64,000 nt of DNA from a bacterium (GTDB taxonomy: Bacteria > UBA8248). A program made the position numbers. This document shows positions 21,001-64,000 of this stretch, piece by piece. How positions within the stretch are numbered: the first letter of the stretch is position 1; each line of letters starts with the position of its first letter. The stretch lies in contig OZ241875.1 in NCBI GenBank assembly GCA_965203325.1, forward strand, positions 3,808,001 to 3,872,000, read 5' to 3'.

Positions 21001-24000
21001 CTCGCCCTGTTCGGCAAGCATGCGGCCGAGAGCCTCGCCGTCTACACCCACAAGCACGACCACGTTCACGGTCCGGAAGGGGAGATACTCCCCGTCGAGC
21101 GCGAAGAAGCCCGGCACACCCACGGGGGCCGTTGAAAAAGTCCCTCTTAACAGGGGACAAAGGCAACCCCCCCTACCCCCCCTTGTCAGGGGGGTATAAA
21201 AAGGCGGCGCCCGCCGATGAGGAGGTCGAAGAAAAGCCCTTTTTTCAGGGGGGTATGAAAAGGCGGTGTCCCCGCCGGGCCGAGGGGTTTTGCTTTTTCT
21301 TGCCCCCCTGACAAGGGGGGTAGGGGGGGTTGAACCCGACCGGGGAGAAAGGAATTCACTCCCCCTCAAGGGGGGAGTGAAAATGAAACTTAAGGAAGGT
21401 GTGTTTTTCCTCGTCATTGCAGGGGTTTTCACAACCCCTCAAGGAGGCGCGTGATGGAGGATTTCATGTTCCGGGGGCTCATGGGCGGGGTGGGCGTCGC
21501 CCTGGTGACGGGCCCGGTGGGTTGTTTCATCGTCTGGCGCAAGATGGCCTACTTCGGAAACTCCATGGCCCACACGGCGCTCTTGGGCGTGGCGATAGGC
21601 TTCGCCTTCGGGATCGACTTGCGGCTCGGCATCCTCATCTCCTGCATGAGCCTCACGATCCTCCTGGTCTTGCTGCAGAGCCGGAAAACGCTACCCACCG
21701 ACACGCTGCTCGGCATCCTGGCCCACATGGCGCTTGCGGTGGGCTTCATCGCCGTCAGCTTGCTGGAGACGATCCGAGTGGACCTGATGGGCTATCTCTT
21801 CGGGGACATCCTGGCGGTCGGGGCGCTTGATTTGTGGTGGATATATCTCGGCGGGGCGGCGGCGCTGGCCACGCTCGCGTGGCTGTGGCGGGGGCTTCTC
21901 GCCGTCACGGTGAACGAGGAACTGGCGAGCGCCGAGGGGGTCCCGACCTTCGCCGTGAAACTCGTCTTCATGCTCCTGATCGCCTTCATCATCGCCGTCG
22001 CCATGAAGCTGATCGGGATTCTGCTCATCCTCTCGATGCTCATCATACCGCCGGCGGCGGCGCGGCGGTTCTCCAAAACACCCGAGCAGATGGCGGCGCT
22101 CGCCGTCTTGGCGGGGGTCGTCTCCGTCGCGGCCGGTCTTTGGGCGTCTTTGGAGTGGAACGCGCCCGCGGGTCCGTGCATCGTCGTGGCGGCTTCGGTG
22201 CTGTTCCTCTTCAGCTACGTCTGGGAGATGATCGCGGGCAGGGGGTGAGCGGCGCAGCGTTCCTCGGCCCGGCGGCATCGCCTTTACCCCCTTGCCGGGG
22301 TAGTAACCCCAAACCCCCTTGCGCCGGGGGGCTTTTTTGTTTTTACCCCCTGTTAGGGGGTTGTTGAACAAGCTGGAGAGGAAAAATTTGATTGTGTGTA
22401 GGGGTCGCATATATGCGACCCTGTTTTTTCACCCACGACAAGGGCCGCATATATGCGGCCCCTACAAAAACCGCTTCCTCCCCGGTCGCATCAAATCCTC
22501 GCACCATCGCTTTTTCAACAACCCCGTTAAGGAGGGGCAGGGGGGTGGTTTTCAAGTCGAGAGAGAGGCGAGCCGGGTCTGCGCCCGCATTTCCCCGCAG
22601 TTGGCGTTACCGGGCATGCGCCCGCTCCGGGCAGACTCGGGCGCGCGAACGGGAGGAGTTCCGATGGACTCGGGCAAGATGGGCTTTCACAGGGCAAAGC
22701 AGACGGACCCGGCGCTTCGCGCGCGCGGAATTACTGAAAAATACGATTAATCATTGTCATAAACCCGGTGTCGGCGCGATAGTATGATTGGCTCCGTTTG
22801 TCTACGATAACTGATTGTTTATAATACCATATTTCTGCTATTTCCTTCCCCGATGCCCCTTGCACTTTCGCCATACATATGCTTGAATAGCCTCCAGTTT
22901 GATGTCGCACGTATGCGGTTTGATTACAGATTCAGGAGGGAAGATGCCGAAGCGAAGCGATCTGAAACTCACCAAGCGCACCGTCGACGCGCTCGCGGTC
23001 GACGGGAAGGACGCTCTCTTCTGGGACCGGGAGCTGGCGGGCTTCGGGGTGCGCGTCCACGCCACCGGCCGGAAGACCTGGGTGGTGCAGTCCCGGGGAC
23101 CCGGGGGGCCGAAGCGCTTGACGCTCGGCCGTCACGGGGAGCTGGCCGTCGACGAGGCCAGGAAACAGGCCGCCCTCATTATCGACCGCATCAAGCGCGG
23201 CGAGGAGCCGGTGGCGCAACCGCCCGAGGCGGAGACCACCGTGGCGGGACTCGCCGAACGCTTCATGCGCACCCACGTGGAGAAACACCTGAAGCCCGCC
23301 AGCGTTGCTGCGTACCGCACCACGCTCGACAAACACATCCTGCCGGCCATGGGCGGGATGGGGCTGGAGGAGATCGGCGGGGCGGAAGTCACGGCGCTCC
23401 ATCACGGCCTTCGCGATACGCCGGTCCTGGCGAACCAGGCGGTACACCTGCTCTCGCGGATGTTCGTACTTGCCGAGGCGTGGGAACTGCTACCGCCCGG
23501 GCGGAACCCCTGCCTCGCCGTGCGCCGCTACAGGACGCGGGCGCGCGAGCGGTTCCTGACGCCCGAGGAATACCGGAGGCTGGGCCGTGCGCTCAGGCAA
23601 GCGGAGGCGGAGGGCGGGATATGGCCGCCCGCGGTGGCGGCCATCCGGCTGCTCGCACTTACCGGATGCCGCAGGGGCGAGATATTGAACCTGCGCTGGG
23701 ACGACGTGGACCGCACGTCGGGGGATCTGAGGCTTCAGGACGCCAAGGCGGGTCCCCGCATGGTCCCCCTGACGAAGCCCGTTCTCGGGATACTGGACGC
23801 CATCCCCCGCTCCGGGGAGAACCCCTGGGTGATAGCGGGCCAGAGACCCGGAAAACGCCTGACGGGCCTGCACCACTACTGGCGGCCCGTCCGGGAGCGG
23901 GCGGGGCTTCATGACGTGCGCATTCATGACCTCCGGCATTCTTACGCCAGCCGGGCGCTGGCTCTGGGCGAGAGCCTCTACACGATCGGGAAACTCCTCG

Positions 24001-63000: not shown

Positions 63001-64000
63001 GGCGCTGCGGAAAAAAAGGAAGGACGCCGCCCCCTGGGCGAGAGCTCGAAAGCCTCTTTCGTTCACGCCGCGGCGCCCGGCGAATTGCATCTCGACCGGA
63101 GAAGCCCCTTCCGCGGCAAGGCGCTGCGCGCTGCCCGTGCGCAGGTCGAAACGGCGCCGATTCCCTTGTTTCATTCGTTTTTATCGCATCGTATGCTGAT
63201 GTTCCGGGTCGTCCGCCAAATACAATACGGCCAAGCCGAAATAGGCGGACATTCCTTCGTGGATTGTATGCCAACGGCCCGGATTCTGGAGGACATATAA
63301 AATATTCGGCCGGGCAGGCGGGGCGCAGCAATGCCTCCGCCTACCCGGCCTGCCACCCCAGTAATCATTCTCTCATGGGGTGATGAGCATCAAAAATTCG
63401 CCGACCCGAATCGGATACGCCGTGCCATACCAACAACTGCCTCTGAGCCTTGTGGTATTATCACCCTGCCAACGAACGATTTACCGGTCTTCGACGACTC
63501 GCGCCCCTTGGAATGCTCCGGGGTTGTAATGAGTCCGCTTGCGTTTTGATTACATTTATTTCAAGGAATTTATAACTGGTTTGAAAACAATGATTTAATT
63601 TTCATATTCTGGATAATACGATAAATTCACGGGGTTTTTCGATAAATTCCTGAAAAATAATGTACAGATAAATGATTGTAATCAAAAGGGTTATCAATTA
63701 AATCTGAGCGTCTCGCACTAAGATTCAGGGGCAAAAAAAGTTTTTCCGCCGCCCCCGCATTTCCCCGCAATTGCCCGCATTCGCCCCCGGCGCCGGCTCT
63801 GAACGCAGACAAGCGGGAATCGTTCCGCCCGGCCGCGCAAACAGAGTCGGAATTTGTTACAATGAACTTTTGACGACAATGGAAAAATACAGATATATAA
63901 CTGAAAAAGAAGAGTTTTCAGCTTGGAGGACAAAGCATGGGTTATGCAGAGGTTCACGGCCGCTCCCTCTCGGAGGCGGAGGCCTTTTGGGCGGAAGCGG

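Follow-up and report, generated by a model that had tools for sequence, protein, structure and literature searches.

The systems closest to the locus described here are ICEs and integrative mobilizable elements (IMEs) of the MOBF and MPF_F kind, in which a tyrosine integrase gene lies at an end of the element, direct repeats form the att sites, a relaxase is encoded and sometimes a coupling protein too, and the cargo varies and can include defence systems; ordinarily they possess one integrase and enter either a single-copy gene or a tRNA gene. At one end of Tn554 (TnpA/TnpB), of GInt / strand-biased circularising elements and of the int-int modules beside tmexCD-toprJ, tyrosine recombinase genes stand in a row of two or more. 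To our knowledge these elements are small, use single specific sites and lack relaxase or leading-region modules, and their recombinases are not P4-type enzymes with Arm-DNA-bind_3 domains. XerC/XerD provides the model case in which two paralogous tyrosine recombinases each handle one half of an asymmetric core. Some insertion sequences, which are DDE transposons, target REP or palindromic repeats, and tycheposons and pipolins are reportedly multi-site, defence-carrying integrative elements with a single integrase at tRNA genes.

The insertion of RAGE elements is tRNA-linked. In the available part of one account (PMC10732058), RAGE of Orientia and Rickettsia is an F-type ICE lineage that has been amplified in a host-associated bacterium; its numerous copies are partly decayed, and only some genomes have intact ones. 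The same part (PMC10732058) defines it by an integrase, a transposase, an F-type tra/trb set and cargo such as SpoT, histidine kinase, Dam and ankyrin; the integrase lies at the element start, and cargo includes ankyrin-repeat protein, methyltransferase and helicase genes.

In the window (the whole stretch of 64,000 bp that was analysed), island 9 is a 40,887-bp insertion at 22740-63626, bordered by AATACGATTAAT and AATACGATAAAT. It very probably belongs to a multi-copy integrative-element family for which site-specific recombination and conjugation are, or were until recently, the means of movement. The features at its limits are as follows, G000 being this genome.

22584-22739, no strand: left half of the target repeat (chromosomal flank), about 5 other copies in G000
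22740-22751, forward: attL core AATACGATTAAT at the homology breakpoint, one of only two window matches to AATACGATWAAT
22919-22927, forward: integrase-end copy of the motif TTTGATTAC, a candidate for an arm site or a regulatory site, its offset from the integrase end being +177 to +180 in 7 of 10 islands
63535-63553, forward: conserved far-end motif CCGCTTGCGTTTTGATTAC, seen by sequence inspection and containing TTTGATTAC
63615-63626, forward: attR core AATACGATAAAT at the homology breakpoint, the second window match to AATACGATWAAT
63627-63790, no strand: right half of the target repeat (chromosomal flank), with some 20 copies in G000 and numerous ones in congeners

The 12-mer AATACGATWAAT matches the window exactly twice, at 22740-22751 and 63615-63626 (expected 0, 100 shuffles), and in blastn against sister islands the similarity starts at 22740 and stops at 63626, to the base. 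In the closest congener, G012, the site is empty, with the two halves of the target repeat running on uninterrupted through a single core copy, again exact to the base. Island 9 therefore shows the hallmarks of an IME insertion: it encodes an integrase, and att direct repeats flank it where it is inserted, at a defined position. Insertion into the repeat is shown, at the level of these alignments, to duplicate the 10-12-bp core.

The source genome was assembled from a metagenome as a single contig (95.5% complete, 3.25% contamination), for which our own heuristic ORF calls were used. The ten islands sum to 482,232 bp, 10.98% of 4,392,711 bp, and backbone gene counts agree with the initial annotation, which had described ten related islands covering about 11% of the chromosome. 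By tblastn, 11 tandem integrase pairs were found (the ten islands and a remnant at 471279-473500), as well as one solo integrase copy at 2380306 and one integrase fragment at 3717089. The copy numbers given previously were recovered in the same way for YAcAr, DUF4326 and HTH_17 (11 each) and TrwC (7), and the 10 SSB genes form a 10-member cluster with one per island. Common to all ten islands are two overlapping, catalytically intact P4-type integrase genes, a co-directional SSB/DUF4326/YAcAr block and, towards the far end, an HTH_17 gene and an invertible segment of 159 bp, which in most islands adjoin a giant surface-protein gene. The ends proposed for subfamily 1 (islands 1, 2, 3 and 9) and subfamily 2 (islands 4, 5, 6 and 10) hold, while two other limits had to be moved: island 7 ends at 2588530 instead of 2588110, flanked by the 11-bp direct repeat ATTTATCGAAA, and island 8 extends over 3278566-3373554 instead of 3278560-3373367, flanked by AAGGGGGGGTAG. 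Backbone proteins are 92-100% identical between islands whose integrases share only about 65%, indicating recombination between island copies; misassembly across the 90-98% identical backbones may also have occurred.

The integrases fall into four groups (islands 1, 2, 3 and 9; islands 4, 5, 6 and 10 with the remnant; island 7; island 8), each with its own dispersed repeat as target, and the groups match four att cores, type and core co-varying perfectly (4/4 and 4/4). Dispersed repeats, earlier proposed as targets for two integrase types, thus serve all four. The three unoccupied subfamily-1 targets listed before were too few, since 13 in the genome carry the exact 12-mer, and 38 further free copies of the 33-nt type-1 site occur with up to 4 mismatches. 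There are 55 type-2 sites, 45 type-3 cores and 170 type-4 cores. With targets in tens to hundreds of copies there is no one-site limit, so that elements accumulate. As stated earlier for the repeat, no Rfam family was matched, either by the island ends or by the flanking repeat. At core position 9 of type 1, the 4 islands all have T in attL, whereas A is found in attR and at each of the 13 free sites, which suggests that the type-1 crossover lies within AATACGAT.

Empty-site comparisons were resolved for islands 1, 2, 4, 5, 6, 7, 8 and 9. For islands 9, 1 and 2, congeners have base-exact empty sites in which the core occurs once; the distance between the flanks in congeners is 78-294 bp at the sites of islands 4, 5, 6 and 8, and 1.1 kb at that of island 7. 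The sites of subfamily-2 islands and of islands 5-8 are not base-exact because near-junction repeats vary. Six of the 10 island sites are free in G012, where flank identity is 92-97%, and this congener has 13 YAcAr matches of its own, indicating fast turnover of islands. Together with the tracking of att core by integrase type, these empty sites uphold site-specific insertion as first suggested. The motif TTTGATTAC, its offset measured at the equivalent place on inverted islands, has 59 genome copies against 9.5 expected; it is part of the conserved far-end feature CCGCTTGCGTTTTGATTAC, which the G012 ICE also has, about 120 bp inward of its far end. A k-mer search of the island ends did not find a repeated arm-type site.

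The enzymes predicted to carry out this insertion are encoded by two genes with a 4-bp overlap.

22899-24128, forward: intA, P4-type tyrosine integrase (Pfam Arm-DNA-bind_3, SAM-like, Phage_integrase); the true start is probably the ATG at 22936
24125-25294, forward: intB, second P4-type tyrosine integrase (Arm-DNA-bind_3, SAM-like and catalytic domains)

IntB is 52% identical to IntA, and both have the Arm-DNA-bind_3 architecture of P4-type tyrosine integrases. The catalytic residues of tyrosine integrases, R, K, HxxR, H and Y, are unchanged in 22/22 paralogues, and all 20 integrase genes of the islands are full-length with these residues intact. Of 80 related loci, 77 have the tandem arrangement and two of the other three are truncated by a contig end, and the pair occurs in records titled Alphaproteobacteria, Gammaproteobacteria, Thiotrichales and Acidobacteriota; the backbone was also found in loci of records titled Alphaproteobacteria and Gammaproteobacteria. 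Membership of XerC/XerD was rejected, as NCBIfam Xer models give IntA/IntB 52-88 bits against cut-offs of 220-335.

The translationally coupled IntA and IntB would recombine the element site with the 10-12-bp core in a dispersed repeat, possibly acting jointly on the asymmetric core in the manner of XerC/XerD. We propose, tentatively and from sequence comparison, that they may form an obligate XerCD-like module that was repeatedly re-specialised to dispersed repeats, leading to a pile-up of ICEs and IMEs as the principal means by which host-associated bacteria of this kind carry immune systems along with eukaryote-like proteins. Under a rather unlikely alternative the pair would be no heteromeric recombinase: IntA would handle integration and excision by itself, and IntB would resolve multimers or tandem arrays or act on another target. 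P4-type integrases normally work as homotetramers, and the closest annotated relatives, on plasmids and chromids with about 44-45% identity, are single integrases, both of which would fit such a division of labour. Against it are the retention of the pair in nearly all related loci across records titled as several phyla, the translational coupling in island 9, the congruent IntA and IntB identity matrices (11/11 pairs, no mixed pairs), and the att cores, in which no dyad symmetry was seen by inspection.

Joint action of the two integrases may be assisted in some islands by an element-encoded IHF-like protein, the first of the backbone genes that follow intB in island 9.

25325-25720, forward: IHF/HU-like DNA-bending protein (Pfam Bac_DNA_binding; NCBIfam IHF-alpha 105 bits, below the cut-off of 111)
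25858-26460, reverse: TetR-family regulator (Pfam), paralogues in islands 1 and 2
26668-29568, reverse: MobF (TrwC/TraI-type) relaxase-helicase (Pfam TrwC PF08751 273.5 bits, AAA_30 161.8 bits)
29569-29824, no strand: conserved divergent intergenic region, candidate oriT and promoters
29825-31679, forward: three conserved genes (29825-30304, 30479-30775, 30579-31679), paralogues in 9-13 places
32646-33086, forward: SSB (Pfam E=4.7e-23), wobble periodicity agreeing with the frame
33653-34027, forward: DUF4326 protein (Pfam), 11 copies, 92-100% identical
34058-35017, forward: YAcAr (SLOG-family) protein (Pfam), 11 copies, 94-100% identical
35584-36000, forward: small NikA-like (ribbon-helix-helix) protein (weak Pfam match, E=3.9e-4, below cut-off; frame confirmed)

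The relaxase belongs to the MOBF family, with its TrwC domain N-terminal and an SF1B helicase C-terminal (NF041492 269.8 bits against a cut-off of 100; TIGR02686 above cut-off). Backbone genes change mainly at third codon positions, and this periodicity backs the frames of the three genes in 29825-31679, for which nothing above curated cut-offs was found in Pfam, NCBIfam, PHROGs or PADLOC. Gene-by-gene Pfam searches returned the gene content initially given for island 9, with the SSB placed at 32646-33086, in a frame other than that of the longest local ORF. YAcAr is the best-conserved backbone marker, with 110 relatives in a genome-contig search. The NikA-like protein, whose island-10 paralogue matches Pfam at E=6.5e-6, is a candidate relaxosome accessory.

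After excision, the MobF relaxase would nick an oriT within 29569-29824, a position suggested by conservation: conserved blocks lie upstream of the homologues of the gene at 29825 in 9 islands, including islands 4, 6 and 7, which have no relaxase. The co-directional block of three unknowns, SSB, DUF4326, YAcAr and NikA-like genes might then enter the recipient first, as a leading region. This reading follows from gene order, location on a single strand and the SSB (compare the accessible part of PMC11541004).

Towards the far end, a variable slot carries defence and eukaryote-like proteins, followed by a giant surface protein that is probably phase-variable.

36191-40828, forward: cargo, 1545-aa protein, with an 81%-identical paralogue in island 4
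41194-44037, reverse: cargo, ubiquitin-like conjugation operon (Pfam E2_C+ThiF E1, JAB, Metal_CEHH, DUF2604)
44546-48027, forward: IS debris (rve fragments), MarR-like gene, YafQ-family toxin gene and Mutator-family transposase (Pfam)
48041-50545, reverse: cargo, SIR2-STAND NTPase, 834 aa (Pfam SIR2_2 and nSTAND_NTPase5; PADLOC ThsA-like SIR2)
54930-55943, forward: cargo, DUF6602 / NucC-like PD-DExK nuclease (Pfam and PADLOC)
56465-61399, reverse: surface protein, 1644 aa, cadherin-like / Calx-beta / fn3 (Pfam), paralogues in island 6 (84%) and island 1 (70%)
61506-61718, no strand: inverton upstream of the giant gene, a 159-bp segment between 27-nt inverted repeats
62111-62830, reverse: HTH_17 protein, 239 aa (Pfam), 11 copies
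63085-63300, forward: conserved 71-aa ORF, 8 paralogous matches, 90-99% identical

The 1545-aa protein had no match in Pfam or PADLOC; as a lead only, its language-model neighbour clusters, partly NACHT/nSTAND3, hint at a STAND/NACHT-like protein. In the operon at 41194-44037, PADLOC gave BilD (E=8.5e-14) and BilC (2.2e-12), the Ubl being DUF2604 with an additional Metal_CEHH gene, an arrangement that we take to resemble '6E'. The SIR2-STAND gene sits in a 42% GC patch of the GC profile. Across the family, Pfam and PADLOC support the defence, ankyrin and adhesin cargo noted at the outset, including CRISPR-Cas I and II, DISARM, type I R-M, Lamassu-like, Bil-like and SIR2-STAND systems and ankyrin proteins, the last in islands 3 and 6. 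Most of the exchangeable genes that serve this cell against viruses or in host interaction lie in the islands. With respect to its flanks, the inverton segment points the same way in islands 9 and 6, and the other way in 9 further island copies. The HTH_17 protein, matched by PHROG 66 'excisionase and transcriptional regulator' (E=3.8e-10), is a candidate excisionase or transfer regulator and may serve in either role; its gene is internal in the G012 ICE, adjoining the tra operon, and this position fits a regulator at least equally well. No family match was found for the 71-aa ORF.

A MobF relaxase is present in 7/10 islands, and a TrwB/TraD (F-type) coupling protein only in islands 5 and 10. 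No PF03135, PF11130 or TIGR00929-level VirB4/TraC was found anywhere in G000, so the earlier term mobilizable is apt: island 9 is IME-like in having a relaxase and a putative oriT and no complete mating pore. A self-transmissible ICE was rejected for island 9 and every other G000 island, as a complete T4SS is absent. In G012, a family member of about 104 kb (G012:C2 546,571-650,560) shares the island backbone and integrase pair, is bounded by AAGGGGGGGTAG, and contains a near-complete F-type transfer operon (TraE, K, B, C, TrbI, S26, TrbC, TraN, H, G, TraD, TrwC); with a T4SS within the element, it is an ICE. The family therefore comprises ICEs and mobilizable derivatives, and present-day mobility in this strain needs a helper outside its genome. 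The helper could plausibly be a full F-type ICE of the same family, as in G012, and mobilisation in trans is conceivable for copies without a relaxase in which the conserved region is retained.

The islands might instead be fossils, remains of ancient ICEs that lost excision and transfer and are retained only for useful cargo, and the missing T4SS ATPase in G000, the 3/10 islands without relaxase, the IS debris in island 9 and the remnants at 471 kb, 2380 kb and 3717 kb are consistent with decay, as is the result that public runs, as short assembled unitigs, yielded no excision junction. We consider this improbable, because all 20 island integrases remain full-length with catalytic residues, backbone substitutions are mostly third-position, the six free sites in G012 alongside its own YAcAr matches point to fast turnover, and a complete F-type member exists in the genus. 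P4-like satellites or prophages moved by capsids are very improbable: the integrases are P4-type and the DUF4326 and YAcAr regions match PHROGs, but Pfam detected no terminase, portal, capsid or tail families among 41+139+117 island proteins, and a relaxase, a coupling protein and, in G012, the F-type T4SS are present. Segmental duplication with gene conversion, the short direct repeats arising by chance or from the repeats themselves, could account for the higher identity of backbone proteins than of integrases, yet has next to no probability, being already contradicted by the base-exact empty sites in other species, a core polymorphism that obeys strand-exchange logic, cargo that differs from island to island, and relatives in records titled as other phyla.

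A mobile family thus remains the preferred reading, and it appears to be of the ICE/IME kind, its closest analogue being the amplified RAGE elements of Rickettsiales. TraE/K/B/C/N/H/G, TrbC, TrbI and TraD are common to MPF_F elements and the G012 member; unlike ordinary ICEs and IMEs, the islands have two coupled integrases, multi-copy repeats as targets, and at least 10 co-resident copies. At the level of described architecture RAGE is analogous, with F-type genes (here in G012) and ankyrins (islands 3 and 6). In the part of the RAGE account available (PMC10732058), the integrase at the start is not described as a pair, whereas here it is paired. The islands also belong to a different phylum, are mostly intact, have att sites defined in repeats and carry mainly anti-phage cargo, and they are treated as an analogue of RAGE, not a member. 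Adjacent recombinase genes at one end are shared with Tn554, GInt and the tmexCD-toprJ modules, from which the islands would differ in the features named above. Unlike XerC/XerD, IntA and IntB have arm-binding domains and are element-borne. REP-targeting insertion sequences, tycheposons and pipolins are alike in using repeated or multiple chromosomal sites or as exchangeable defence-gene platforms. In the literature searched, neither a description of this twin-integrase island family nor a paper joining ICE and REP terms was found.

Genus members of 2.9-3.1 Mb have 0 marker matches and those of 4.1-4.6 Mb have 6-13, so island load would explain genome sizes from about 3.0 to 4.6 Mb in one lineage. 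The defence systems and ankyrin proteins known from such symbionts would have their physical carrier in the islands, and a compact recombinase pair with four natural short-repeat specificities bears on target change by tyrosine recombinases. If the proposed mechanism is true, the one-site limit of ordinary ICEs is removed, F-type ICEs and their stripped derivatives reach at least 10 copies and more than 10% of a genome, and at least four repeat specificities in this genome arose from one integrase module. The family would then be a second, independent case beside RAGE of ICE amplification in a host-associated genome, with att sites still readable, and a free-living-symbiont counterpart of RAGE with a defined amplification mechanism.

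Island 9 (22740-63626 in the window) is a member of a real, well-bounded ICE/IME family with ten twin-integrase islands in the source genome G000. Within the window, AATACGATWAAT was restricted to 22740-22751 and 63615-63626, with an expectation of 0 in 100 shuffles. When the junctions were compared by blastn with the whole 4,392,711-bp contig, similarity to the sister islands began exactly at 22740 and ended exactly at 63626, and a different, dispersed repeat lay immediately outside both borders. The GC content of the window is about 62%, with a mosaic of 42-71% GC between 22.7 and 63.6 kb, and no tRNA genes were found in the window. 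The gene content and the bounds of island 9 proposed in the initial annotation were borne out by Pfam, the exact blastn breakpoints and the 12-mer pair. Island 9 carries the following genes, in an order read from Pfam matches of the predicted genes:

22899-24128, +, IntA, P4-type integrase
24125-25294, +, IntB, P4-type integrase, overlapping IntA by 4 bp
after the integrases, an IHF-like protein and a TetR regulator
strand opposite to the integrases, TrwC relaxase-helicase
co-directional block, three unknowns, SSB (32646-33086, +), DUF4326, YAcAr and NikA-like
after this block, the cargo and then a 1644-aa cadherin/Calx-beta protein (giant gene)
far end, a 239-aa HTH_17 protein and a 71-aa ORF

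The backbone reading frames of island 9 were confirmed by the third-position substitution periodicity among paralogues. ORFs 30765-31964 (-) and 35094-35441 (-) showed no codon periodicity and were rejected as spurious, and ORF 32459-33190 (+) was a wrong frame over SSB by the same measure. No match in NCBIfam or PADLOC was obtained for the proteins at 29825, 30479 and 30579, the 71-aa ORF and the N-terminus of HTH_17; the protein at 30579 gave weak, sub-threshold zinc-ribbon matches in Pfam. PHROGs matches were limited to DUF4326, YAcAr, NikA-like and HTH. At gathering thresholds Rfam returned nothing for the window, the island ends giving only sub-threshold microRNA/lncRNA noise.

Searching G000 by tblastn with the island-9 proteins yielded 11 integrase pairs in tandem plus a solo copy and a fragment, together with 11 YAcAr, 11 DUF4326, 11 HTH_17 and 7 relaxase genes, and SSB was present in all ten islands; these tblastn and Pfam counts agree with the initial ones (11 of each backbone marker, 10 SSB, 7 MobF relaxases). 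The summed length of the ten islands was 482,232 bp, or 10.98% of the contig, close to the 480 kb and 11% of the chromosome estimated before. Four integrase groups, about 62-71% identical to one another, were distinguished: islands 1, 2, 3 and 9 (type 1); islands 4, 5, 6 and 10 (type 2) with the remnant at 471 kb; island 7; and island 8. Backbone proteins, by comparison, share 92-100% identity across all the islands. The histories of backbones and integrase modules therefore differ, which speaks for recombination between copies.

The flanks of the islands were searched in five congeners (G012, G010, G011, G002 and G018) and the junctions were compared, with the following results:

island 9, G012 reads ...CTGAAAAATACGATAAATTCACGG..., with a single core and no island, flanks 96-97% identical
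island 1, empty site exact to the base in G011 and G010
island 2, empty site exact to the base in G012, G011 and G010
island 4, in G012 an intact hairpin-GACGAACAAAACCG site lies between flanks separated by 78 bp
island 5, about 280-290 bp between the flanks in G002 and G012
island 6, about 294 bp between the flanks in G012, and flanks also adjacent in the four remaining congeners (about 290-340 bp)
island 8, flanks 265 bp apart in G018
island 7, flanks 1.1 kb apart in G012

For island 3, the left flank is not conserved in G012, and the break in the right flank falls exactly at the core; for island 10, the second flank was not found within 1.5 kb of the first in G010, G011, G012 or G002. To judge from these junctions, the islands are insertions. 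G012 also carries an island-9-like copy that abuts another island. Two further differences were observed beside the islands. Left of island 2 (969.3-971.4 kb in G000), a second indel leaves about 1.9 kb in G000 vs. about 150 bp in G012. The left flank of island 8 (3275.6-3277.2 kb) contains a sequence of about 1.55 kb with about 26 near-full-length copies in G012 and 4 in G010 (87-92% identity), probably an insertion sequence expanded in G012.

In type 1, attL is always AATACGATTAAT, and the sequence is AATACGATAAAT at attR and in each of the 13 exact copies that are unoccupied, a difference that would place strand exchange inside AATACGAT. The type-1 core is embedded in an AT-rich module (...TTCCTGAAAAATACGATAAATTCACGGGGTTTTTCGATAAATTCCTGAAAA...) that is part of a repeat of about 330 bp, found in about 20 places in G000 and many in congeners, and flanking island 9 at 22584-22739 and 63627-63790; the 33-nt site has 38 free copies at no more than 4 mismatches. 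This repeat, common to the genus, matched no Rfam family; direct CGCATTTSCCCGCAAYTGCC motifs stand on either side of an AT-rich centre, which has CGATAAAT boxes, and of a stretch that resembles a promoter or terminator. Type-2 insertion adjoins a REP-like hairpin, ATTCCGGC..GCCGGAAT, followed by GACGARCAAA (55 copies at no more than 1 mismatch). The borders of islands 7 and 8 were revised on finding direct repeats: island 7 spans 2553419-2588530 and is bounded by ATTTATCGAAA, its core being the neighbouring TTTCGATAAAT box of the type-1 AT-rich repeat (45 copies), and island 8 spans 3278566-3373554 and is bounded by AAGGGGGGGTAG, a core that occurs 170 times and lies within a palindromic repeat with C/G homopolymers; in G018, ...CCCCCCTGACAAGGGGGGGTAGGGGGGGTTGG... 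is uninterrupted. As these two cores are also repeated, the aim at dispersed repeats suggested earlier extends to all four integrase types. Immediately left of the target repeat of island 9, at 22390-22470, GGGTCGCATATATGCGACCC and GGGCCGCATATATGCGGCCC form two neighbouring perfect palindromes. They are members of another dispersed family, for which blastn gave dozens of matches, and their order or orientation is inverted in G012.

An 8-mer search for arm sites in the ends of islands 9 and 5 gave no 8-mer present at least 3 times. TTTGATTAC, with 59 copies in the genome vs. 9.5 expected, lies at set distances from both island ends in direct orientation (e.g., 22919-22927 and 63545-63553); it also occurs inverted inside the type-1 target repeat, and 8 of its 27 non-island copies are within 150 nt of a target core. 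It may be considered a candidate arm site, as a lead only.

The arginine, lysine, HxxR, histidine and tyrosine positions were kept in all 22 IntA and IntB sequences, and the IntA and IntB identity matrices were congruent, with no mixed pairs among 11. In an alignment-based scan that covered one genome per species, IntB had 293 relatives; an IntA-like gene lay directly upstream in 77 of the best 80 loci, and a contig end cuts two of the three exceptions. Some of these loci, at 56-68% identity, come from records titled Alphaproteobacteria, Thiotrichales, Ectothiorhodospiraceae, Acidobacteriota and Candidatus Rariloculaceae. Among annotated integrases of the plasmid collection, the closest were single genes with 44-45% identity (Ruegeria, Paracoccus, Azospirillum and Indioceanicola), from which no family name was obtained. 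IntA and IntB are proposed to form an XerCD-like heteromer, given that their translation is coupled, that they are conserved together and diverge congruently, and that the cores lack dyad symmetry; possibly, they split the labour between them instead.

The relaxase is of the MobF type (NF041492, 269.8 bits vs. a cut-off of 100), and a TrwB/TraD-type coupling protein is also present in islands 5 and 10, the latter scoring 497.5 bits vs. the TraD_Ftype cut-off of 521. VirB4/TraC was not found in G000 with PF03135, PF11130 and TIGR00929; F-type TraC is present in the congeners G007, G010 and G012, and in G024 and G026. The G012 element at C2 546,571-650,560 is bounded by AAGGGGGGGTAG, has island-8-like ends and encodes:

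transfer genes, TraE, TraK, TraB/TrbI, TraC, TrbI-F, S26 peptidase, TrbC, TraN, TraH, TraG, TraD and TrwC
the NikA-like, YAcAr, DUF4326 and SSB block
Toprim/DUF7146, DUF2958 and a helicase of the Strawberry-notch type
HTH_17 and a Cre-like recombinase, together with a cadherin-like gene and the IntB-IntA pair

This gene set and the lack of VirB4/TraC in G000 suggest that the family includes self-transmissible ICEs, of which the G000 copies would be T4SS-less derivatives. The divergent region 29569-29824, conserved even in the relaxase-less islands 4, 6 and 7, is a candidate oriT, and the single-strand block with SSB would fit a leading region; the leading region of plasmids is described in PMC11541004, the available part of which does not mention DUF4326 or YAcAr.

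In island 9, a 159-bp segment upstream of the giant gene lies between inverted repeats of 27 nt (61506-61532 and 61692-61718). The segment is present in every island, and the genome has about 16 copies, which face either way with respect to their conserved flanks; the island-9 orientation recurs in island 6, and the opposite one is found in nine other island copies. A Cre-like recombinase adjoins it in islands 1, 4, 6 and 7 and in the G012 ICE, and no recombinase gene lies beside it in island 9 (an orphan inverton).

The cargo of the islands was as follows:

island 1, Lamassu-like LmuB/ABC-3C, methylase, Mrr, endonuclease
island 2, type I R-M, DISARM DrmA/DrmB, PD-Lambda-4, PDC-S68, NERD helicase
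island 3, three ankyrin proteins (one fused to an FGE-sulfatase domain), AbiE
island 4, HD-CE, DUF4143 ATPase
island 5, Y-family polymerase, DACNG/DACNH, Mrr
island 6, ankyrins, FGE-sulfatase, VWA, LpxR, SIR2
island 7, PDC-M55/Nsn-like, 1512-aa AAA_16/AAA_22-domain ATPase (possibly STAND-like)
island 8, type I CRISPR-Cas, Dcm/Vsr, RES, PDC-S06, extra P4 integrase, two backbone copies
island 9, Bil-like E1/E2-JAB-CEHH-DUF2604, SIR2-STAND, NucC-like DUF6602, YafQ, and a 1545-aa STAND-like protein (atlas look-alike, lead only)
island 10, Cas9 and Cas1, HepT, DUF5677

In the ubiquitin-like operon of island 9 (41194-44037), an E2_C-ThiF fusion is combined with JAB, a protein of the Metal_CEHH type and a Ubl of the DUF2604 type; PADLOC recognised nothing but its E1 and JAB as Bil-like, so the operon is possibly a variant not yet catalogued.

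The YAcAr marker matched 18 of 51 genomes of the phylum and 15 of 22 other genus members. Genus members of 4.1-4.6 Mb had 6-13 matches each, including 13, 11, 11 and 10 (matches, not copy numbers), and four members of 2.9-3.1 Mb had none; genome size tracks the marker across the genus. DUF4326 was near 63 of 80 YAcAr loci; the relaxase and pairs of integrases likewise turn up repeatedly around these loci, some of them in records titled Alpha- or Gammaproteobacteria. A sponge metagenome label was attached to 11 of 20 public runs listed with parts of the stretch and to two of the four compared with 21000-24000, where 100-500-bp unitigs broken at repeats, with no loose end listed at the junction, were uninformative on excision.

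No description of this family was found in the accessible portions of the literature on tandem-recombinase IMEs, paired tyrosine recombinases in islands, sponge-symbiont mobile elements, tandem integrases and ICEs in REP sequences; the best analogue, from the part of PMC10732058 available, is RAGE. On genomic comparison, the ICE/IME family is probably still mobile. Its two unusual traits are the conserved twin integrase and the systematic targeting of dispersed repeats, the latter explaining its high copy number.
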